Shown here piece after piece: positions 22,728 through 54,060 of a DNA stretch of 64,000 bases. Source of the DNA: Naegleria gruberi (taxonomy: Eukaryota); the NCBI GenBank assembly GCA_000004985.1, contig GG738858.1. The stretch is one strand, 5' to 3'. Numbering within the stretch: the stretch's first letter is position 1; each line of letters starts with the position of its first letter. The notes under the pieces are model-generated. The model was not told where the DNA came from and made no database searches. It worked only from the letters and a program-made list of their open reading frames with translations. A program made the position numbers and the translations under genes.

Positions 22728-23027
22728 TGTGTTGTTTCGTATGGTTTTGTTTGGGTTTTTTCAAAGTGGAGTAATGATATTAAAGGGTCAAAAAACCAAA
22801 TTCTTTTTTAATAAGAATGCAATAAACTAAAGCTTTCGTCTGGAGAATTTAAACAATTTTCACAGATTTTGAGAATTGTAAGGAGGCCGCTTTTGTAATT
22901 CCTCCAGATTTTTAGATGGATTTTTGTTGAGTGGAAATATTGAGTTGTTACTAGAGGCATGAAAGTTCTACAAATGGAGTTCCATGATTATTAAATAAGT
23001 TGTAGAAACTGTATTCGAAATTCTAAG

Positions 23028-24497
23028 TTTGGACAAAAAGTGTTTCGTGCAAGTTACATGGTCATAAATTAAACCTAACTGGGATTCATACGGATTCCAT
23101 GGTATTGAAATTTCCTTAATGGGAAGTCTACAGTTTGTTTGTCAACTATGAGTACGGACTGCATGACAAGGTCAACTTACAATTGGTTCCTCAACACTTT
23201 TAAACAAATTCCATTTTATTAATCACAAAGCTTACAATCTAACATGTTTCAGTGCACAAAATAATCTCTGTCAGAAAAATAAGCTTACTGGTACAGTTAT
23301 ATCTGCATACCAAATCAATTAATTTGGACGGTTGATATAGAACACAATTATGAGAGAACCAATAGAAAGTATGAATATTTGCAAGACCAGATACACAAAT
23401 CCATTTAGAATTTTAAAAAGATATTTTCTGTTTATCCGACTACACACCAATAAATACGAAAATAATGAGCTTTATTCTACACGCGCAATATATGATGTAA
23501 ACAACTTTGACATCATACCCATTCCACTTGAACTGTTTCAAAGAAATTTCATGAAATGCATACAGTCTTTTAAGAATTCAAGTTTGACGCCTCCTGTCCC
23601 TTTACCAATTTTAACCTGTAATTTGCACAAACCTAAATGGTACTTTTTGAGATAATTAAAAATGTGTCCTTGGATACGGTTAGAAAATAGGAAACCCATG
23701 CCATTTCATTTTCATGAATACTATAAAGGTTTTTTATAATGGAGTTTTAAAAGTAATTCAAGTTTGGACAAAAAGTGTTTCGTGTAAGTTACATGATCAT
23801 AAATTAAACCTAACTGGGATTCACACGGATTCCATGGTATTGAAATTTCCTTACTGGGAAGTCTACTGTTTGTTTGTCAACTGAGTACGGACTGCATGAC
23901 AAGGTCAACTTACAATTGGTTCCTCAACAATTTTAAACAAATTCCATTTTATTAATCACATAGCTTACAATCTAACATGTTTCAGTGCACAAAATAATCT
24001 CTGTCAGAAAAAAAAGCTTACTGGTACAGTTATATCTGCATACCAAATCAATTAATTTGGACGGTTGATATAGAACACAATTATGAGAGAACCAATAGAA
24101 AGTATGAATATTTGCAAGACCAGATACACAAATCCATTTAGAATTTTAAAAAGATATTTTCTGTTTATCCGACTACACACCAATAAATACGAAAATAATG
24201 AGCTTTATTCTACACGTGCCATATATGATGTAAACAACTTTGACATCATACCCATTCCACTTGAACTGTTTCAAAGAAATTTCATGAAATGCATACAGTC
24301 TTTTAAGAATTCAAGTTTGACGCCTCCTGTCCCTTTACCAATTTTAACCTGTAATTTGCACAAACCTAAATGGTACTTTTTGAGATAATTAAAAATGTGT
24401 CCTTGGATACGGTTAGAAAATAGGAAACCCATGCCATTTCATTTTCATGAATACTATAAAGGTTTTTTATAATGGAGTTTTAAAAGTAATTCAAGTT
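23028..24497. repeat. Two tandem, about 97% identical copies of a 733-bp unit (copy 1 about 23028-23760, copy 2 about 23761-24497), each containing an identical 101-aa ORF (23350-23655 and 24083-24388)
   Basis: Direct read-through identity of the two units. Differences are limited to a few substitutions and small indels. The period comes from the ORF offset (24083-23350=733). Confidence 0.9.
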
Positions 24498-24539
24498 TAC
24501 AACCGGATGACATCCAGGTTACAATAAAATTAAAAAAAA

Positions 24540-25377: not shown

Positions 25378-25495
25378 TGGCTACGGCCATATCACGATGA
25401 AAGCACCTCATCCCGTCCGATTTGAGAAGTTAAGCATCGTCGAGCCACATCAGTACTGAGGTTGGAGACAACTTGGGAACCTGTGGTGCTGTAGT
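25378..25495 (+). rRNA. 5S ribosomal RNA gene, copy 1, followed by a T5 run
   Basis: GGCTACGGCCATATCACGATGAAAGCACCTCATCCCGTCCGATTTGAGAAGTTAAGC..GGGAACCTGTGGTGCTGTAGTC matches conserved 5S blocks (GCCATA.CAC, ATCCCGTCCGAT.TG, GAAGTTAAGC, GGGAA.ACC.GGTGCTGTAG). T-run Pol III terminator directly 3'. Confidence 0.9.
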
Positions 25496-25528
25496 CTTTT
25501 TACTTCATAGTCAATAGTCAACCAATAA

Positions 25529-34769: not shown

Positions 34770-36563
34770 TTATCTATGCATCAGATTGAGTGTTTCTTCT
34801 ACAATTAGATTTGGACTGGTAAGAGCCATATCAAAATCTGCATCAATTATCTTCCATGCCATTTTGGTGGAATTGTAGTAGGTAGCTAAATCTTGGTGCA
34901 TTGATAAAAAGGCGTTTGCACGTTCTTGTTGATAAATAAGAAAATCATTGCATAGAGCTGTTCCAAAAGAAAGGTAATTGTCCTCGCAAGATCCATAAAG
35001 TAATTTCTTTGATGTGAGTATACTGACTGGAATAATTGTTGAATTTGAAGAATGGAATTGCTGTCTCTTTGCTCTAATATTTATAATATTGCCTGTCGTA
35101 TTTTTCATGTCATCAAGCTCACCCCAAACAGCATTATTGAACTTGTTGATATTTGTTGTATGTTGGTTGTATTTCAGTAAAAGTTGAACAGCTGTTGAAT
35201 TTGGGAAAGATGAAAAATACGTCTTCCAGCCATTCAAGTAATATCGTTCATGGATTGTTCCTAAGGTGGAAGGGAGTTTTTGATAGAAATAATTTGAGAA
35301 ATATCTAGTAAATCCAATAGGTGTTACGAATCTAATGGTATTGGCCATATAGGCTTTCTCTTCTAACATATTGCTTATTTGAGTATCAGTTAAATTATAC
35401 ACACTACCAAGATGATATGTGTCTTGCTTTTCATGAGATGGATGCAACAAGATAACACCCCTCAAGAGTTTTCTGTGATATTCCATGACTGTTCTGGCTG
35501 TGAATGAGGCACTTGAATGTGAAATCAAAATGAATGGTGTTTTGAAAGATGCCTCTTTCACAAGTGCAATCATTTCATTCATTGTTGTATTGCTCAAATC
35601 TCTTGGAAATGGTCCCGAATCGCTGAATCCATATCCTGCTCTCTCAATCACACAAGCTCTCATTCCCTTCTTTGCCAACAGAGTGATTAAACTCTTCATA
35701 TAAGCATATGGTGATGCAACTCCAATATCTGAATCGAGAAGCACTGCATCTTCACTTTCAGAATCTCCTTCACAATACATGTGCATATTCAGTGTTTGAG
35801 CACTCGAGGGTTTAATGCTGTACATGGTTCCAGGGACTTTATATTCATCCTGTGTTATCGAAACTGATTGGACTGTAAACATGATGAATAAGGCACAAAC
35901 TAAAGCCATAAATGTATAGACTAGAAGCTTGATGACTGTTGTAACTCGACAACAAATTCTGGTTCTGAAAAAGCTTTCTTCTCCATACCATTTTTCTTCC
36001 TTCAAATCGAATATTATTGTATTTGATTTTCTAAATTTCTTGAATTGATGATATGCAATTACAAGATATGAAATTGGAGAGATGACAAAAAACAGGCAAA
36101 GCCAACCAGAAAGTCTCTCTCTATTCTCACTATAAAGTCCATAACAAACCCAATTAATCAAACTAGAGATGAAAATAAGTACTCCCCAAAATATTCTCGC
36201 AAAGAGAGCCATGCTATATCCGTCAATATTAATTTGACGAGTTAAATTATCCTTAATAAGTCCTTTCTTTTCAATAAAAGATACAATCCTCTTATACCAT
36301 CTCAATAAAAATAAAGGTCCGAATAGATCAAAAATGAATGTTAATGAAAAAACCATTTGAAATGCACTTGTCCACACAACAGTAGTAGGAGAACCTGCAG
36401 TAAAATATCCTATTTGATCAGAATTACTATTATCCATTGAAATTCCAAACACTACTATGGAGGATAATGCACAAAATAATATTGTTAGAATTGCAACTTT
36501 GTAAATTGCTCCAATTATTCCCTTCTTGGTCTTTTTAGTCTTCTTCTTTGTTGGCTTTTCCAA
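34770..36563 (-). CDS. Membrane-anchored alpha/beta-hydrolase-fold protein, paralog A (N-terminal multi-TM region plus AB-hydrolase-1 domain), intronless
   Basis: ERAGYGFSDSG (the DxRGhGxS-type block) and nucleophile elbow ISHSSAS. Five N-terminal TM helices. Confidence 0.65.
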   Translation of the reverse strand: MEKPTKKKTKKTKKGIIGAIYKVAILTILFCALSSIVVFGISMDNSNSDQIGYFTAGSPTTVVWTSAFQMVFSLTFIFDLFGPLFLLRWYKRIVSFIEKKGLIKDNLTRQINIDGYSMALFARIFWGVLIFISSLINWVCYGLYSENRERLSGWLCLFFVISPISYLVIAYHQFKKFRKSNTIIFDLKEEKWYGEESFFRTRICCRVTTVIKLLVYTFMALVCALFIMFTVQSVSITQDEYKVPGTMYSIKPSSAQTLNMHMYCEGDSESEDAVLLDSDIGVASPYAYMKSLITLLAKKGMRACVIERAGYGFSDSGPFPRDLSNTTMNEMIALVKEASFKTPFILISHSSASFTARTVMEYHRKLLRGVILLHPSHEKQDTYHLGSVYNLTDTQISNMLEEKAYMANTIRFVTPIGFTRYFSNYFYQKLPSTLGTIHERYYLNGWKTYFSSFPNSTAVQLLLKYNQHTTNINKFNNAVWGELDDMKNTTGNIINIRAKRQQFHSSNSTIIPVSILTSKKLLYGSCEDNYLSFGTALCNDFLIYQQERANAFLSMHQDLATYYNSTKMAWKIIDADFDMALTSPNLIVEETLNLMHR

Positions 36564-37701: not shown

Positions 37702-39570
37702 TCAAAAATCTTGAAGAAAAGGAAGTATTAGTTCGGGATGATGTAAAGCAATATCATAATCCGAGGGGATGTGTTTCCAGGAGACGGAGTAGAGCTTGGG
37801 TTGATTTTTGTAAAAATTGAAGAGATCTTGATGGAGGAGTTGGATGATGAAAGATCTTTGGAATTGTTTTTGGAGGAAATCTTGGCAAATTGATGAACCT
37901 TCTGGAAAGAAATTTTGGCTACAATTTCCATTGAGAAGATAGCTTGATGTGAGGATGATTAGAGGGAGTGGTTTTGTTGAATTGGACATTGTTTGTGGAT
38001 TTTCTCTATTATGGATGATCTGCTTATTATTGAATGGGATGGATTTCAACTCACTCCAAACAGTGTTCGTAAATTTGTTGCTATTGAGAACACTATCGTA
38101 AATTTTCAATAATGTTGAATTAGTGAAAGATGGATAGAAGTACTTTTTCACACCATTCATATAATATCTATCATACCAATTATCCTTTTCATTTTCCTCC
38201 AATAATCCAAAAACTCGAAATATTCCAATAGGAACCAGCATTCTAATGGTATTCACATGGCTTACTTCAGTATTGTAGTGTTCCTCTACTGTTTCATTCT
38301 TGACAAATGTTCTCAGTAATGATTCTTCTTGCTTTTCATGAGATGGATGCAACAAGATAACACCCCTCAAGAGTTTTCTGTGATATTCCATGACTGTTCT
38401 GGCTGTGAATGAGGCACTTGAATGTGAAATCAAAATGAATGGTGTTTTGAAAGATGCCTCTTTCACAAGTGCAATCATTTCATTCATTGTTGTATTGCTC
38501 AAATCTCTTGGAAATGGTCCCGAATCGCTGAATCCATATCCTGCTCTCTCAATCACACAAGCTCTCATTCCCTTCTTTGCCAACAGAGTGATTAAACTCT
38601 TCATATAAGCATATGGTGATGCAACTCCAATATCTGAATCGAGAAGCACTGCATCTTCACTTTCAGAATCTCCCTCACAATATAGATGAAGGTTAATTGT
38701 CTGTGTGTCTTTGGAATATAAGGGCACCTGAACTGTTTGACCTGGCATGCTTTGAATTCCTGCCAAGATAGATACAGCCTGAATAACACAACCTATTAGT
38801 ACCACAATTAGTAGAGTTGTAAATATTAACACTGAAATATGGGCTGCTTTCATGAAGTATTTCATTATGGTTGATCTTTTAGAATACAAAAACAGATAGA
38901 TTTCATGGCAATTTTGTGTCTTTTTGTGCTTATGCTTTCCAAATTTTTCCTCATAGTATTCCTTGACATACCTTCCTTTAACAAACTGGTAATATTTTGT
39001 TAACAAATCAAAGATTACATTACTTACTTGATATACAATCACTAGAATATATGCAATCATTGGAATTAATCCAGAGAATGCAAACCAACCAGTCAATCTA
39101 TCTCTACTCTCCTTTACAGTATATGAAATCCAAATAATGGAAAGCAATAGCATTGTTACAATGGTAATTAATAATTTGATAATTAACATCAGAATAGAAG
39201 TATCCCATGATAGATACATGTAATTTGTATAATTAGTAACAAAAATCTTTTTCCTTTTAATACTAAATCCCATCATACAGCCCATAATTGGTATGAAATA
39301 TGAATCAATAATTAATAATCCAATGTAAAATAGCATTACAATAGAAATCCAAAATATTGTAACTGGTGATCCACTTGTATAAAATCCACTATTCGACACT
39401 ACATTAGCAGCACTAACAGACATTGTAACTATATATGAAATCAAAAAGAATATCAGTGTTATAGTGCTAATTTTGTACAGTGAATGAAAAATCTTCTCCA
39501 CATGTTTGAGTTCACTCGGCTTGGAAACAATTTTTGGACTTGTACTAATTGGAGAACCTTGCATTTCCAT
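37702..39570 (-). CDS. Membrane-anchored alpha/beta-hydrolase-fold protein, paralog B (tandem duplicate of 34770-36563)
   Basis: Same architecture as paralog A. A central 117-aa block is identical to paralog A. The flanking regions are divergent. Confidence 0.65.
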   Translation of the reverse strand: MEMQGSPISTSPKIVSKPSELKHVEKIFHSLYKISTITLIFFLISYIVTMSVSAANVVSNSGFYTSGSPVTIFWISIVMLFYIGLLIIDSYFIPIMGCMMGFSIKRKKIFVTNYTNYMYLSWDTSILMLIIKLLITIVTMLLLSIIWISYTVKESRDRLTGWFAFSGLIPMIAYILVIVYQVSNVIFDLLTKYYQFVKGRYVKEYYEEKFGKHKHKKTQNCHEIYLFLYSKRSTIMKYFMKAAHISVLIFTTLLIVVLIGCVIQAVSILAGIQSMPGQTVQVPLYSKDTQTINLHLYCEGDSESEDAVLLDSDIGVASPYAYMKSLITLLAKKGMRACVIERAGYGFSDSGPFPRDLSNTTMNEMIALVKEASFKTPFILISHSSASFTARTVMEYHRKLLRGVILLHPSHEKQEESLLRTFVKNETVEEHYNTEVSHVNTIRMLVPIGIFRVFGLLEENEKDNWYDRYYMNGVKKYFYPSFTNSTLLKIYDSVLNSNKFTNTVWSELKSIPFNNKQIIHNRENPQTMSNSTKPLPLIILTSSYLLNGNCSQNFFPEGSSICQDFLQKQFQRSFIIQLLHQDLFNFYKNQPKLYSVSWKHIPSDYDIALHHPELILPFLQDF

Positions 39571-47065: not shown

Positions 47066-47443
47066 ATGAATAATAATAACTTTAATAAAAGCATGATGAA
47101 TAACAATAGAAGAGTAGGAGAGCAAGATTTGAATCCATTGCCTGGGTTTCAACCTTTACAAGGAAATGCTCCTTCCTCAATGAGTATTGGATTTGGTGGC
47201 AATCTCGTTGGACCAAATAATCCAATTTTCAATGGCTCGAATATTCCTTCTGCTTCTTCAATGGGAGGAGGTATGAAACCTCAGATGTTACCTGGTTCTA
47301 GATTTGATCCAGTTTATCCTATCATTGGGCCATTTGGAGGTTCTGTAAGTGGAAATAGAGGTGAAAGTTCTTCATCGTCTTCATTTGGAAATATTAATCC
47401 AGATCATCACAAACCTCCACAATTTGGAGATGAAGATTTGTAA
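47066..47443 (+). CDS. Small Gly/Ser/Asn/Pro-rich hypothetical protein (125 aa)
   Basis: ORF only. Low complexity. Confidence 0.3.
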   Translation: MNNNNFNKSMMNNNRRVGEQDLNPLPGFQPLQGNAPSSMSIGFGGNLVGPNNPIFNGSNIPSASSMGGGMKPQMLPGSRFDPVYPIIGPFGGSVSGNRGESSSSSSFGNINPDHHKPPQFGDEDL

Positions 47444-47559
47444 TTTCGATAACGAGTGAAACAAGAGTTTCAATAAATATAGCCCGAGTTTAATGTGAAT
47501 AAAATTTGCTTTCAAAGATTTTCAATATTCTTTATATTTATTGTGTTAAGGTAATGAAT

Positions 47560-47677
47560 GGCTACGGCCATATCACGATGAATGCACCTCATCCCGTCCG
47601 ATTTGAGAAGTTAAGCATCGTCGAGCCACATCAGTACTGAGGTTGGAGACAACTTGGGAACCTGTGGTGCTGTAGTC
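47560..47677 (+). rRNA. 5S ribosomal RNA gene, copy 2 (one substitution relative to copy 1: GAATGC vs GAAAGC), followed by T5
   Basis: 118-nt match to copy 1. Preceded by about 75 bp that is shared with copy 3. Confidence 0.9.
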
Positions 47678-47790
47678 TTTTTATCACACATTAATTTCGA
47701 TAAATAGATGATTCACAGCACCAAAAAAAAGGAAATTCAACTTTTTCAACACTCATTGGAATTGCTGATTTACAGAGCTCAACAGCCAAT

Positions 47791-48927
47791 TTAGAAACAC
47801 TTTCTATGAACAAAACCTGGACCAGCCTCCTCATATTCCTCTTTCGATATCCACATCTGCTGAAAGGTTGCAAGACTCGCGAGGATACTACCTCCAATCC
47901 AAACTGAATACTTTCTTTCAGGTGGGGCGACAACCTTTATCTTCATTGAGGCTGGTGCCAAAGCAGTCAATTCCTTGGTCATTCTTTCAGCAATACCTTC
48001 GAACATGGTATTACCACCTGACAAGACAACATTTCCATACAATTCCTTTCTAATGTCAATGTCACATTTACCAATTGAGTTGAATGCCATTTCATGAACA
48101 CCAGCAGCCTCCATTTTTTCAACCAAATTAGGTTGGAATAAAACTTCTGGACATCTGAATCGTTCGTTACCAATTGTTATCACATTACCATCTGGTAATT
48201 CGTATAACTTTTCCACGGAGGATGATTCAGCAGCAACTTTCATTTCAGCTTCGAAATCTAAAGCAATATAACAGAGCTTTTCCTTAATACCTCTGACAAC
48301 TTCTCTTTCAGCAGTAGTATTGAATGAGTAACCTCTTTCCATCAAAATATTCATCAAACAATCAGTCAAGTCACGACCAGCCAAATCCAATCTCAAAATG
48401 GCATGTGGCAAGGCATAACCTTCATAAATTGGAACAGTGTGTGAAACACCATCACCAGAATCCAAAACTATACCAGTACTTCTACCAGAAGCATACAATG
48501 ACAAGACAGCTTGAATGGAAACATACATGGCCGGAACTGAGAAGGTTTCAAACATGATTTGACTCATCTTTTCTCTATTTGGCTTTGGATTAAAAGGAGC
48601 TTCAGTCAACAAGACTGGATGTTCCTCAGGAGCAACACATAATTCATTGTAGAAGGTGTGATGCCAGATCTTTTCCATATCATCCCAATTAGTAACAATA
48701 CCGTGCTCAATTGGATACCTTAAAGTCAAGACACCACACTTGTATTGAGCTTCATCACCAACATAGGCATCCTTACCAAACATTCCAATCATGATTGACT
48801 TTTGCTTTGGTCTAGCAACAATTGAGGGAAAGACAGCTCTTGGAGCATCATCACCAGCAAAACCAGCTTTACACATACCAGAACCGTTGTCAACAACGAG
48901 AGTTTGAACGTCTTCATAGAAAGACAT
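47791..48927 (-). CDS. Actin (about 80% identical to conventional actin), intronless. The likely start is the Met of [17 protein letters not shown] at 48927; the ORF extends 21 codons further upstream to 48990.
   Basis: [103 protein letters not shown], terminal VHRKCF. A-rich context AAAAAAAACAAATCAAATG precedes the internal Met. Confidence 0.9.
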
Positions 48928-50218: not shown

Positions 50219-50405
50219 TTTTTTTTAATTTATTTTTACAACAGTTTCAATCTTTGTAACCAAACTGTGCAAGAAACACTGGAATTTGAGAGTTTTTAGT
50301 ATTCTTTACAATATAGGTCCAGCCTTGTTTAATATATAACATGAATAAATTTTGCTTTCGGAGATTTTCAATATTCTTTATATTCATTGTATTAAGGTAA
50401 TGAAT

Positions 50406-50523
50406 GGCTACGGCCATATCACGATGAAAGCACCTCATCCCGTCCGATTTGAGAAGTTAAGCATCGTCGAGCCACATCAGTACTGAGGTTGGAGACAACT
50501 TGGGAACCTGTGGTGCTGTAGTC
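50406..50523 (+). rRNA. 5S ribosomal RNA gene, copy 3 (identical to copy 1), followed by T5
   Basis: 118/118 identity with 25378-25495. Shares about 75 bp of upstream sequence with copy 2. Confidence 0.9.
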
Positions 50524-50704
50524 TTTTTAATTAAGTTTTAAGACACATGAATCTTTAAAGTTGTTCATGTAGTCTTTTTGAGGAGAATTTTACTCCCTGT
50601 TCAAAGTATTAACATTTGATATTTGGGCATTTAATTAAAGTAGTACCACAACATCTTTCTCGGCCAATTGGCTTTGATCGAGTGAAGTTTCTGTTCTTTT
50701 CAGT

Positions 50705-51094
50705 TTAATAGCTGAAAGCAGCCCAAGGGTTGCCTCCTCTCAATCTCAATACTAAATGCACAGTTGAGTCCTTTTGAAGATTGTAATCATTAATGGTTCT
50801 GCCATCTTCCAATTGTTTTCCTGCATAAATCAATCGTTGTTGATCTGAAGGAATACCTTCTTTATCAAATATCTTTTGTTTCATATTCTCAACAGTATCA
50901 CTCGATTCCATTTCAATTGTAATTGTCTTTCCAGTTAAGGTTTTTACTTGTTTTCCAGCAAAGATGAGTCTTTGTTGATCTGGTGAAATTCCTTCCTTTT
51001 CTTGAACTTTTCTTTTCACATTTTCAATTGAATCATTAGATTCAACTTCCAAAGTGATTGTTCTACCAATGAGTGTCTTGACGAATAATTGCAT
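50705..51094 (-). pseudogene. Degenerate ubiquitin-like gene: Ub(1-49) fused in frame to Ub(5-76) plus an 8-aa tail, with multiple substitutions relative to the near-invariant ubiquitin sequence
   Basis: [49 protein letters not shown] | [80 protein letters not shown]. Canonical ubiquitin differs at 15 or more positions. Confidence 0.6.
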
Positions 51095-51096
51095 TA

Positions 51097-52477
51097 TGTT
51101 TGTTGTTTTTTTTTCTTATTGTTTTTCTTTGAATTCAAAGCATTTCTTTGCATTTTATTCTTGTAAACCTCCATTCCAATAAGATTTGGTTGAAATAATA
51201 TCTCAGTAGTTTTGAATCTTTCATTCCCAAGTGAAATTACATTTCCATCTGGCAATTCTAGACCGTGGGAGGTGAGAAGGATTGACAAATATTTTAAAAA
51301 AAAATTAAGAAGTCACTCAAAAAACAATTTGTTAAAGTCGAGCCGAAGGTTTATTGGACCAAGAGTGAGACAGTGTGTTCAAAGTATCAATTACCACTTG
51401 TTCTTCTAGAAACAAGTACTTCTGGGTTCTTGTACATGAACCTTCGCTTTAATGTACCAACAATTTCAAGTAAATGGGCAGGCACTTATCTAGATGATGT
51501 TTTGGTGAGGTGAATGTAGTAATGGCTGGTGAGGAAGGAAGCAAAGGGAGAACTCTCCTCATGGTGGCTTCTCAAGGTAGCATGCTGAAGGTGGGAATAC
51601 CAACCAATATACCTATTTAGCAGGGTGATGATGAAATCATGATGAGTAATTGTTGTTTGTTGTTTTTTTTTGTTGAATATTTAACGGTCAGAACAGACAA
51701 CTTTCAGCGGTTATTGGTTGGCGCGAAATTACCGTGATGTAACATTTTTTAGCTCACCTCCCTCGGTCTAGGCAATTCATATAAACTTTCTTTCGCTGTT
51801 TCTGCCAAAAAATTACTGGCAACATAACCAGTTTTTTCCTTCATATCCCTGACTAGTTCAGTTTCACCCATCGTGCTGAAATTATATCCTCGTTCCATTA
51901 ACATTTTCTTCAAATAATCTGTCAGGTCTTTGCCTCCTAATTCCAATCTTTTGGTGGCATGTGACAGGGCATATCCTTCATAAACAGGTACTGAATTAGT
52001 GACGCCATCACCTGATTCCAATACTACACCTGTCATTCTACCATTTGCAAATATTGACATGGCACATTGATTTGCCAAACACAAACCTCTCACCTTAAAA
52101 CTTTCAAACATGATTTGTGTCATTTTCACTTTCACATCCTTTGAATTTAGTGGCATTTCCATCAGTAATACTTCATGCTCCTCAGGAGCAACTCTTAACT
52201 CATTGTAAAATGTATGATGCCATATCTTTTCCATATGATACCAATCTGAAATTAATCCACGATCAATTGGATATTTGTAAACATTAATACCCCTCCTACA
52301 CAATGCATAATCTCCAACGTAAGTTTCGATAGAGCCCATTGAAAGGAGGAAGGGTGCTACTTTTCGATGTGAAGTTACTGTGGGAAAGACTGCTCGTGGA
52401 GCATAATCACCAGAAAAACCAGCTTTCATTTGAGAGGAACCATTATCAATGATGAGTGGTGGATTTTCATCAGTCAT
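51097..52477 (-). pseudogene. Truncated divergent actin paralog interrupted by a 512-bp MITE-like insertion. The coding parts are 51771-52477 and 51097-51258; the stop TAA overlaps the ATG of the downstream ubiquitin-like ORF as TAATG.
   Basis: [76 protein letters not shown] | insertion | [28 protein letters not shown], then a basic tail. Lacks about 100 C-terminal actin residues. Confidence 0.7.
51259..51770. mobile_element. Non-autonomous DNA transposon (MITE-like), 512 bp, with 18-bp terminal inverted repeats (TAGACCGTGGGAGGTGAG .. CTCACCTCCCTCGGTCTA, 17/18 match) and an exact 8-bp target site duplication GGCAATTC at 51251-51258 and 51771-51778
   Basis: TIR and TSD read directly from the sequence. 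Removing the element and one TSD copy restores the in-frame actin sequence ..[18 protein letters not shown]... No ORF of significance inside. Confidence 0.8.
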
Positions 52478-52575
52478 TTTTTTTTGTAAGTTTTAAATTG
52501 GGAACTTGGAACAATATTTCACTTGCATTAAAAGTTCAAAATTTTTGTGATTATCTCAATAATATAAAATCTTAA

Positions 52576-52646
52576 CTCGAACGCCGGGAATTGAACCCGG
52601 GTCGCCAGAGTGACAGTCTGGAATGCTACCACTATACCACGCCCGA
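52576..52646 (-). tRNA. tRNA-Asp (anticodon GUC), 71 nt
   Basis: Minus-strand read TCGGGCG TG GTA TAGTGGTAG CAT TCCAGA CTGTCAC TCTGG CGA CCCGG GTTCAAT TCCCGG CGTTCGA G. Anticodon loop CUGUCAC. Acceptor stem closes with two G-U pairs. Confidence 0.85.
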
Positions 52647-52779
52647 TTACATACCTTACGAAATCTCACCTTAATTCACCTTAATAACAAATCTCACTCA
52701 ATTCTGGCTAATTTGTATTTATTCAAAGGTATTTATGTTTTTAAAAGCTCCATGAACTTGGCTGGAAATTCAATTAAAT

Positions 52780-54060
52780 GTGGAAACTTCTCTATTTGTT
52801 TCAGATGTGCATTTTCGAAAATGCATCTTTTTTTTCAAATATGAATCACAAATGGACAAAGTTGATGGAAACACAACCAAAAAAATGGATCCACAACTAA
52901 CGTTCAAGGCATACAGCAAGATTGAAAATCATCATCAGGAGAGTTTCGTTTCAAAGTTATTGGAAAAGGAAACTGAAGATTCGGATAAGAAATTGGAATG
53001 GGTTTGCTTGGAGAAAGTGCATGGTAGCAATTTCAGCTTTATTGTTGTTCCTAAAGAAGGATCACAAGATAAAGTTGAAGTATTGAAAGCAAATCGTACC
53101 AATGTTCTTACCATATTAAGTAATTTCTTTGTGGAAGCTCAAAAAGAAGTTTACGAAAGATATTACAAGAGTTGTGTTAAATTATTCGAAATTATTTCTC
53201 AAAATGCAGAAAAATTCAAACGAAAGACTATGGAAACTGAAAGTGAAATTACAAAAATTCACATATTTGGTGAATTATTTGGTGGATACTTTCCAAAATT
53301 GAAAAATGATCAAGATTCGAATGGTATTCGTAAAGCACACATTCAAAAAGGTGTTTACTATTGTCCACATTATGATTTTTACGTATTTGATGTGGCAGTG
53401 ACATTTGGCGACCAAGATACTTGGTTACTTTTCGATGAGGCAGATCCAATTCTTGAAGAAGCAGGATTTAGAGTTAGAGCTAAACCACTTTTTAGAGGTT
53501 CATTGAAGGAATGTTTGGATTTTGATGTGGAAATTAACACGATAATTCCACAAACTTTTTATTCTGACATTTTGACAGAAAATGATATTTTATTTAAGGA
53601 AAAGGAAAATATTTGTGAAGGAGTGGTGATTAAACCTGCTAATGGTACTGTATTTGTCGGATCGAGGGCAATTATTAAGAAGAAGAATTCAAAATTTACT
53701 GAAGTCAATCCTGCCAAAGATAAATCTAAACGAATGAAGAAACAGGAAAAATCTGTGGATCAAGACGAACAAGAAATGATTTCTAATGTGTGGAATGAAA
53801 TTGAGCGATATTTGAATAATAATCGTCTTGATAATGTCGTTTCCAAAGTTGGAAATATTACTAGAGAAAATCTTTCACTTGTTTTGAAGAATTTTGTGAA
53901 CGATGCCATTGAGGATTATGATAAAGATCAACAAGAATTGGGAGAAGAAGGAGCTACCCTATCATCCCTTCCAGTCAACATTCAAAAATCAATCAAGAAG
54001 AAATTGGGATCCACCTGTCAAGCAATTCTTCTAAAATACATGAACGAAAACAAACAATAA
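52780..54060 (+). CDS. ATP-dependent RNA ligase of the Rnl2 family (nucleotidyltransferase motifs I, III, IV, V), intronless, 426 aa
   Basis: Motif I EKVHGSN (KxHGxN lysine-adenylate site). Motif III IHIFGELFGGYFP. Motif IV CEGVVIKPANG. Motif V AIIKKKNSKF. The true start may be the internal Met (MDKVDG) at about 52852. Confidence 0.75.
   Translation: METSLFVSDVHFRKCIFFFKYESQMDKVDGNTTKKMDPQLTFKAYSKIENHHQESFVSKLLEKETEDSDKKLEWVCLEKVHGSNFSFIVVPKEGSQDKVEVLKANRTNVLTILSNFFVEAQKEVYERYYKSCVKLFEIISQNAEKFKRKTMETESEITKIHIFGELFGGYFPKLKNDQDSNGIRKAHIQKGVYYCPHYDFYVFDVAVTFGDQDTWLLFDEADPILEEAGFRVRAKPLFRGSLKECLDFDVEINTIIPQTFYSDILTENDILFKEKENICEGVVIKPANGTVFVGSRAIIKKKNSKFTEVNPAKDKSKRMKKQEKSVDQDEQEMISNVWNEIERYLNNNRLDNVVSKVGNITRENLSLVLKNFVNDAIEDYDKDQQELGEEGATLSSLPVNIQKSIKKKLGSTCQAILLKYMNENKQ

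Follow-up and report, generated by a model that had tools for sequence, protein, structure and literature searches.

What kind of locus places a truncated actin sequence against a ubiquitin-like reading frame so closely that the stop codon of one overlaps the start codon of the other? The question is raised by two open reading frames (ORFs) on the minus strand of a 64,000-nucleotide stretch of Naegleria gruberi contig GG738858.1 (assembly GCA_000004985.1), hereafter called the window. One encodes 242 actin-like residues (52477–51749) and the other 129 ubiquitin-like residues (51094–50705). The original prediction described a pseudogenized actin/ubiquitin-like pair that still keeps open frames, and offered an actin-related/ubiquitin-like fusion transcript as the alternative.

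Our analysis indicates that the locus is most probably a non-functional mosaic of gene fragments in the N. gruberi nuclear genome, that is, an ordinary decaying mosaic pseudogene. Read along the minus strand, it consists of actin-like codons 1–264 with a miniature inverted-repeat transposable element (MITE) inside, a di-ubiquitin leader, a di-ubiquitin coding sequence (CDS) with a deletion, and an antisense fragment of a U2 small nuclear RNA (snRNA) gene. We infer pseudogenization because the actin-like sequence has lost its C-terminal end and is split by the MITE, the ubiquitin piece is incomplete, and U2 is represented by just a 5′ fragment.

Protein searches returned 100% matches for both ORFs to N. 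gruberi entries labeled "predicted protein": XP_002679409.1 (NAEGRDRAFT_65595) for the actin-like ORF and XP_002679408.1 (NAEGRDRAFT_32234) for the ubiquitin-like ORF. The two accessions are consecutive, belong to one 782,252-bp scaffold, and have N. gruberi NEG-M as their source. A literature search found no paper naming either NAEGRDRAFT_65595 or NAEGRDRAFT_32234. The two entries are best filed as one decayed mosaic that automatic annotation split into two "predicted proteins".

A Truncated Actin-Like Sequence Interrupted by a Transposon

The actin-like ORF begins at the ATG at 52477 and ends inside a 512-bp insertion. Codons 1–233, from the ATG to the target site of the insertion (51779–52477, minus strand), are defined by the ORF itself, by identity to XP_002679409.1, by a Pfam Actin match, and by comparison with a paralog. 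Codons 234–264 (51166–51258, minus strand) form the final actin-homologous stretch and were located with tblastn and by alignment to the same paralog. Where the two overlap, this full-length N. gruberi relative, NAEGRDRAFT_29917 (P0002, 368 residues), shows 90% identity to the window copy. They remain co-linear as far as ...LIGMEV (residue 264), after which P0002 continues with AGIHENIFTS... and the window copy with YKNKMQ....

The actin-like part thus lacks 104 C-terminal residues, the final quarter of the fold, in line with the loss of about 100 that had been predicted, and no remnant of the actin C-terminus was found elsewhere in the window. The frame-restored product matches Pfam Actin (PF00022) with E = 2e-73, but only across profile positions 2–300 of 410. 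Homology to actin is therefore evident, while the actin/Hsp70/hexokinase ATPase fold is incomplete: the adenosine-binding and connect-2 segments, which make up approximately the last 100 residues, are missing.

The insertion, also recognized as a transposon in the original prediction, is a 512-bp non-autonomous DNA transposon (51259–51770) with the features of a MITE. It has 18-nt terminal inverted repeats of the form TAGACCG[A/T]GGGAGGTGAG that match at 17 of 18 positions, lies between two perfect 8-bp copies of the target-site duplication GGCAATTC (51771–51778 and 51251–51258), and has no coding capacity and no transposase ORF. The window contains this repeat pattern at two sites, whereas 0.01 occurrences would be expected by chance, and two matches were obtained in 0 of 100 shuffles. 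Neither the element nor its inverted repeats have further copies in the 64-kb window. The perfect target duplication and closely matching ends suggest that the insertion is recent. Removal in silico of the MITE together with one GGCAATTC copy restores the actin frame, which, with the element present, ends ~650 nt before the ubiquitin ATG.

This interruption bears on the possibility of a young chimeric gene or bicistronic transcript driven from an actin-like promoter. Such a gene would yield a truncated actin (subdomains 1–2 and part of 3–4) and a 121-residue ubiquitin variant with a Gly-Gly end once its extension is trimmed; the second frame would be reached by re-initiation at TAATG or by leaky scanning, and the MITE would perhaps be an intron. 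Two theoretical GT-AG pairs would excise the MITE in frame, pairing a donor at 51786 (AAGAAA followed by GTTTAT) with an acceptor that ends at 51258 or at 51249. GTTTAT would be a weak donor, however, and the actin frame as it stands stops inside the MITE. Even a spliced actin would lack the adenosine-binding and connect-2 parts of the fold. We regard a chimeric gene as quite improbable. The fusion transcript proposed earlier likewise finds no support, given that the two frames differ, a stop codon lies between them, and the MITE ends the actin frame early.

An Internally Deleted Di-ubiquitin Copy

The ubiquitin-like ORF (Pfam ubiquitin, E = 1.4e-45) is a damaged member of an N. gruberi di-ubiquitin family that comprises at least seven genes of 152 or 153 codons, dispersed on different scaffolds. 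These genes include P0198 (XP_002670147.1), P0204, P0207, P0214, P0221, P0223, and P0232. As DNA references, we used L001 (673–1131) and L002 (194–652), both of which encode P0204, and L084 (367–825), a third copy of the family. Between –70 and the last Gly codon, the leader and CDS in the window align to L001 and L002 with 90–93% nucleotide identity and a single gap of 93 bp.

Alignment to intact 152-residue copies places codons 1–49 of unit 1 at 50948–51094 and codons 5–76 of unit 2, ending in RLRGG, at 50732–50947 (both minus strand), with the deletion junction at 50948/50947. The deletion is exactly 93 bp long and in frame (L001 820–912), and removes residues 50–76 of unit 1 and 1–4 of unit 2, or 31 codons. 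The fusion of unit 1 residues 1–49 to unit 2 residues 5–76 had been read correctly from the ORF. Unequal crossing-over between the units was considered as a cause and rejected, because it would remove a whole 228-bp unit and because the breakpoints share no sequence.

Both the stop codon and the family 3′ untranslated region (UTR; ~75 nt, conserved between L001 and L002) are absent after the window ubiquitin piece. The piece is not a series of complete head-to-tail 76-residue units ending in Gly-Gly, and it has neither a promoter region of its own nor a 3′ UTR. AlphaFold2, run on the 129-residue product as a single sequence without an alignment, gave a mean pLDDT of 41.9, too low to be informative.

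Fifteen or more substitutions relative to ubiquitin had been taken as a mark of abnormality. The count is borne out: unit 2 has 14 differences from canonical ubiquitin in 72 residues and unit 1 has 10 in 49, the latter counted by eye against the human sequence. Their interpretation as decay is not, since 21 of the 24 occur in every intact N. gruberi di-ubiquitin and 3 are private. Compared with P0198, the window copy shows only T9I, D32E, and one Asn-to-Ser change besides the deletion and the extension. Because the substitutions are common to the intact genes, the divergence of Naegleria from textbook ubiquitin is a trait of the lineage and family and does not indicate decay at this locus.

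The two units of the N. gruberi di-ubiquitins also differ from each other: 14 amino acids distinguish unit 1 from unit 2, which depart from human ubiquitin at 11 and 16 positions, respectively (our own counts). Each unit is conserved across the dispersed copies, and at synonymous sites the two have diverged to saturation. The units of a polyubiquitin normally encode identical proteins, which makes the Naegleria heterogeneity unusual; N. fowleri P0192 shows unit heterogeneity of the same kind. A search of JGI metagenomes for further loci of the di-ubiquitin family gave 80 loci, all of them 72–83% identical, which is roughly the level of canonical ubiquitin (80.6%), and none is of the Naegleria type.

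The Leader, the Lys-Rich Tail, and TAATG

The 70 nt preceding the ubiquitin ATG (51095–51164, minus strand) are ~90% identical to the 70 nt directly 5′ of the ATG in intact di-ubiquitin genes, and align to L001 601–672, to L002 126–193, and to L084. This native leader, read in the actin frame, gives the Lys-rich tail of 23 residues. The tail itself had been noted before; its origin in the di-ubiquitin leader had gone unseen. The leader of the intact copies ends in ...ACAACAAACATAATG without any upstream ORF, and the window copy has the same ending.

The TAATG at 51096–51092 (minus strand) combines the actin-frame TAA with the ubiquitin ATG, which share base 51094, as originally described. It belongs to the leader's own ...ACATAATG, which the intact copies carry as well, CATAATG being found in L001, L002, and L084. 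Because TAATG is present in intact leaders that lack an upstream actin ORF, it is not an evolved stop/start arrangement here; translational coupling would call for an overlap that occurs only where there is an upstream ORF and is conserved along with it. The stop/start overlap is the di-ubiquitin leader read in the actin frame, inherited and not selected at this locus.

Upstream of the leader, L001, L002, and L084 share TTTGTGTCCAGAAAC at approximately –150 and a TATA-like CTTTCTAAAAATA at approximately –90. Neither motif is present upstream of the window ubiquitin piece, where actin CDS occupies those positions. The actin/leader junction lies at 51166/51165, with at most one ambiguous base.

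These observations also touch on the chimeric gene considered above. Both of its frames are open and free of frameshifts, and unit 2 of the ubiquitin retains 72 of 76 residues, including the C-terminal RLRGG. Its supposed re-initiation site, however, was inherited with the ubiquitin leader. The ubiquitin piece lacks its family's polyadenylation region, and its half-unit alone is unable to form the β-grasp fold, as is established for that fold. The structure is, moreover, unique to this locus among database proteins.

An Antisense U2 snRNA Fragment

The ubiquitin-like ORF continues past its last Gly codon into an 8-codon extension, NPWAAFSY, followed by a TAA stop (50705–50731, minus strand). 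This extension, missed in the original prediction, is the reverse complement of U2 stems IIa/IIb. Rfam RF00004 matches 50651–50773 on the plus strand (74.2 bits, E = 1e-14), although only about the first 100 model positions are truly aligned, with high posterior probability, and the alignment essentially skips model positions 107–185, which correspond to the Sm site and stem-loops III and IV. The DNA beyond 50733 is di-ubiquitin CDS with 92.6% identity to L001.

The U2 fragment is thus ~83 nt long (nucleotides 1–83; 50651–50733, plus strand) and contains stem I, the branch-point-pairing region, and stems IIa/IIb. The U2 5′ domain is present; the Sm site and the 3′ stem-loops are not. The fragment adjoins the last Gly codon directly, with a possible overlap of 1–2 nt. 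An insertion into a U2 gene would be indicated by a U2 3′ half beyond the locus, and this option was dropped when none was found on the far side (51000–53200). A 24-nt exact pattern for full-length Naegleria U2 gave 0 matches in metagenomes.

Within 50651–50700, the fragment reads GAGUGAAGUUUCUGUUCUU, compared with AAGUGUAGUAUCUGUUCUU in the Rfam consensus. GUAGUA, the near-universal U2 branch-point-pairing hexamer, is GAAGUU here, which could reflect either pseudogene decay or a heterolobosean trait.

The presence of an snRNA piece invites an RNA-derived origin, in which reverse transcripts of a di-ubiquitin mRNA and of U2 snRNA were captured at a break. Chimeric snRNA/mRNA retro-pseudogenes are known from mammals. 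The U2 piece begins at, or no more than 2 nt from, U2 nucleotide 1 and is 3′-truncated, resembling the 3′-truncated snRNA pseudogenes of humans. It is antisense to the ubiquitin piece, however, whereas template-switch chimeras are co-linear, and it lies 126 nt downstream of a 5S rRNA gene that points the same way, a position in keeping with a resident small-RNA gene cut in place.

The ubiquitin piece for its part begins ~70 nt 5′ of the ATG, near a possible transcript start, but its homology starts ~10 nt past the TATA-like box and hence probably upstream of the true start site. Both a poly(A) tract and a 3′ UTR are missing from it, and a search for flanking direct repeats found none. A processed pseudogene would end in a poly(A) tract, start at the 5′ end of the transcript, and be flanked by direct repeats, and the locus does not fit that description. 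We consider retro-copying unlikely.

A further possibility is that the mosaic is transcribed from an actin-like promoter and has acquired a function, either as an RNA decoy or regulator of U2 or as a newborn protein gene giving ubiquitin with a half-ubiquitin N-terminal extension. Its RNA would then carry at its 3′ end 83 nt perfectly complementary to the U2 5′ domain, including the branch-point-pairing region. We judge such a function highly unlikely.

Substitution Tests

Substitution tests had been proposed as a means of revealing decay, and they did not reveal it. For the ubiquitin part, pairwise comparison with L001 and L002 gives a ratio of nonsynonymous to synonymous divergence (omega) of 0.04–0.07. 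The window-private changes in this part comprise 12 synonymous and 4 replacement changes, one of the latter shared with P0198, compared with 20 synonymous and 0 replacement changes between L001 and L002 (Fisher p = 0.03–0.07). This difference is no more than a weak hint of relaxation in the ubiquitin part.

For the actin-like part, private amino acid changes were counted in a relative-rate comparison in which P0028 and canonical actin P0052 served as outgroups. The count was 11 for the window sequence and 9 for P0002 (p = 0.82), so the truncated actin is not detectably degenerating faster at the protein level. Comparison with the neighboring actin gave nonsynonymous divergence (dN) of 0.33 and synonymous divergence (dS) of 1.30; since dS is near saturation, this pair is uninformative on recent constraint.

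The low omega of the ubiquitin part, the balanced count in actin, and the lack of any frameshift or internal stop in either fragment, the MITE apart, all speak against a pseudogene, and the lack of marked relaxation is what a chimeric gene would lead one to expect. Substitution patterns alone are no proof of function loss and fit either recent disabling or continued constraint. The earlier call of a pseudogenized locus with open frames consequently holds up on structural evidence, and not through the reasoning from substitutions and TAATG that accompanied it. The damage is structural and probably recent: the lack of substitution-level decay suggests that all of the lesions arose late compared with the split from the paralogs.

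Mis-assembly was considered as well. The locus mixes multi-copy families (actin, di-ubiquitin, 5S, and U2), which are classic sources of mis-joins, and one or more chimeric joins in the 2010 Sanger assembly could in principle have produced it. The fragments, however, have diverged from the known copies (90% amino acid identity to P0002; three private changes relative to P0198), and neither the 93-bp deletion nor the junctions lie at repeats or involve shared sequence. Because every piece has diverged from all known intact copies, mis-assembly is, in our estimation, very improbable.

Proposed Formation of the Mosaic

All three junctions are non-homologous, being blunt or sharing at most 1–2 nt. 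This speaks for deletion or filler capture of the end-joining type and against homologous recombination. In the history that we favor for the mosaic pseudogene, a redundant duplicate of a divergent actin of the NAEGRDRAFT_29917 type would have lost everything past codon 264. The break would have been joined to a di-ubiquitin fragment reaching from –70 to the last Gly codon, without promoter elements, stop codon, or 3′ UTR and with 93 bp missing inside, and this fragment to what is left of a convergent U2 snRNA gene, its 5′ 83 nt. The 512-bp MITE would have landed later in the actin part.

The open frames would be incidental. The A-rich leader happens to have no actin-frame stop before its own CATAATG, the length of the internal deletion is by chance divisible by three, and the antisense U2 sequence runs for 8 codons before a TAA.

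Either a single complex event may have captured the di-ubiquitin fragment between broken convergent actin-like and U2 genes, or serial deletions may have occurred among once-intact neighbors, and the evidence points both ways. The 5S rRNA gene next to the mosaic (50406–50524, plus strand; Rfam, 106 bits) precedes the U2 fragment and faces the ubiquitin piece tail-to-tail. L001 likewise has a 5S gene (1297–1403) tail-to-tail with its di-ubiquitin gene, ~165 nt past the di-ubiquitin stop codon. The resemblance of this order to the order of 5S, U2 fragment, and di-ubiquitin in the window favors a resident di-ubiquitin, and the succession of 5S and U2 on the same strand favors a resident U2. The U2 fragment may accordingly be a resident gene cut by deletion.

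For annotation, the outcome is a correction: the two database entries would be not independent proteins but fragments of one mosaic. The locus offers a small, clean example from a heterolobosean genome of how a transposon inserts and of how fragments are joined, apparently without homology. By itself, it opens no new biological question.

Neighboring Genes

The window has a G+C content of ~34% and contains compact, eukaryotic, mostly uninterrupted genes. A scan for bacterial promoters and terminators, which has no bearing on a eukaryotic genome, gave matches at background level. RNA genes across the 64 kb comprise three 5S rRNA genes, two tRNA genes, and the one U2 snRNA match. The locus is bounded by a tRNA-Asp(GTC) gene (52576–52646, minus strand), which lies 98 nt ahead of the actin-like ATG and adjoins a gene for a T4 Rnl2-type RNA ligase (52852–54060, plus strand) with Pfam RNA_ligase and T4_Rnl2_C domains.

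The three 5S genes are dispersed and all on the plus strand (25379–25497, 47560–47678, and 50406–50524). Two of them lie 112–126 nt from the 3′ side of actin loci and have 64 nt of upstream sequence in common, with 96.8% identity between 47496–47683 and 50342–50529. 5S genes may be truly associated with the 3′ ends of certain Pol II genes. The sequence TGTAGTCTTTTT at 50570–50581, in the spacer before the U2 fragment, repeats the final 12 nt of the 5S gene plus terminator ~45 nt downstream of that gene; it could be due to chance or be a remnant of another 5S copy.

The neighboring actin (47791–48927, minus strand), which the original prediction took to be the functional actin, shares just 90% identity with N. 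gruberi actin NAEGRDRAFT_55094 (P0052). Positions that are usually conserved carry radical changes, among them Arg to Cys twice, Tyr to Cys, and GMGNKD to GMFGKD, and there is a one-residue insertion. Against the P0052 CDS in L085, its dN/dS is 0.10 and its dS 0.57. The gene may be a duplicate under relaxed constraint. Each of the two window actins has a partner with 90% identity, and both partners lie on one 941,567-bp scaffold, an arrangement suggestive of an old segmental duplication of the actin pair.

Elsewhere in the window, a 356-bp segment is 99.7% identical (35422–35777 vs 38327–38682) between tandem paralogs encoding membrane proteins of 597 and 622 residues that are otherwise diverged; it looks like a recent gene-conversion tract. 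A tandem duplication at 23019–24498 has a unit of ~740 bp, 98% identity, and the same 101-residue ORF at 23350–23655 and 24083–24388. A 125-residue ORF at 47066–47443 (plus strand) covers no more of the proteasome regulator PI31 than its C-terminal domain and may be a short form or an exon of an intron-containing gene.

Comparison with Known Systems

Literature searches on Naegleria polyubiquitin, U2, MITEs, and 5S genes found nothing specific. The transposon resembles hAT-like MITEs with 8-bp target duplications in having inverted ends, an 8-bp duplication, a length of 512 bp, and no transposase ORF. Its ends (TAGAC...) and its target GAATTGCC differ from the consensus generally given for hAT elements, and with one copy visible we assign it to no family or superfamily.

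Truncated snRNA pseudogenes that lack the 3′ part are known for human U1, U2, and U3. The window fragment is similar in that it retains only the U2 5′ part, without the Sm site and 3′ stem-loops, but it differs in having no flanking direct repeats and in lying directly downstream of a 5S gene.

With the intact N. gruberi di-ubiquitins, the window copy shares the leader ...ACAACAAACATAATG and the same unit-specific residues in both units. Unlike them, it is internally deleted, lacks the upstream motifs, stop codon, and 3′ UTR, and carries the 8-residue antisense-U2 extension.

Ubiquitin and actin coding sequences are also adjacent in the fusion genes of chlorarachniophytes. In those genes, described by Archibald et al. 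in 2003, ubiquitin is reportedly N-terminal and in frame with a complete actin. Ubiquitin fusion genes in general, whether of the ubiquitin–ribosomal protein or the ubiquitin–actin type, have ubiquitin in frame ahead of the partner with no stop between them. At the window locus, the order is reversed with actin upstream, the frames differ, a TAA intervenes, and both parts are truncated. The chlorarachniophyte fusion, written "ubiquitin-actin", is the one natural fusion of the two and has been reported only from Bigelowiella and relatives (PMC6332867).

The closest parallel is offered by unprocessed fragmentary (mosaic) pseudogenes, which arise by deletion and end joining after duplication. The window locus differs from these in that three unrelated genes, one of them an antisense RNA gene, abut within 1.8 kb, and in that all joins leave the frames open while substitution-level decay is not yet detectable. 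It resembles them in being a redundant duplicate of an intact paralog that has lost terminal coding sequence, promoter, and UTRs, and in combining non-homologous junctions and a transposon insertion with incidental open frames caught by automatic gene prediction.

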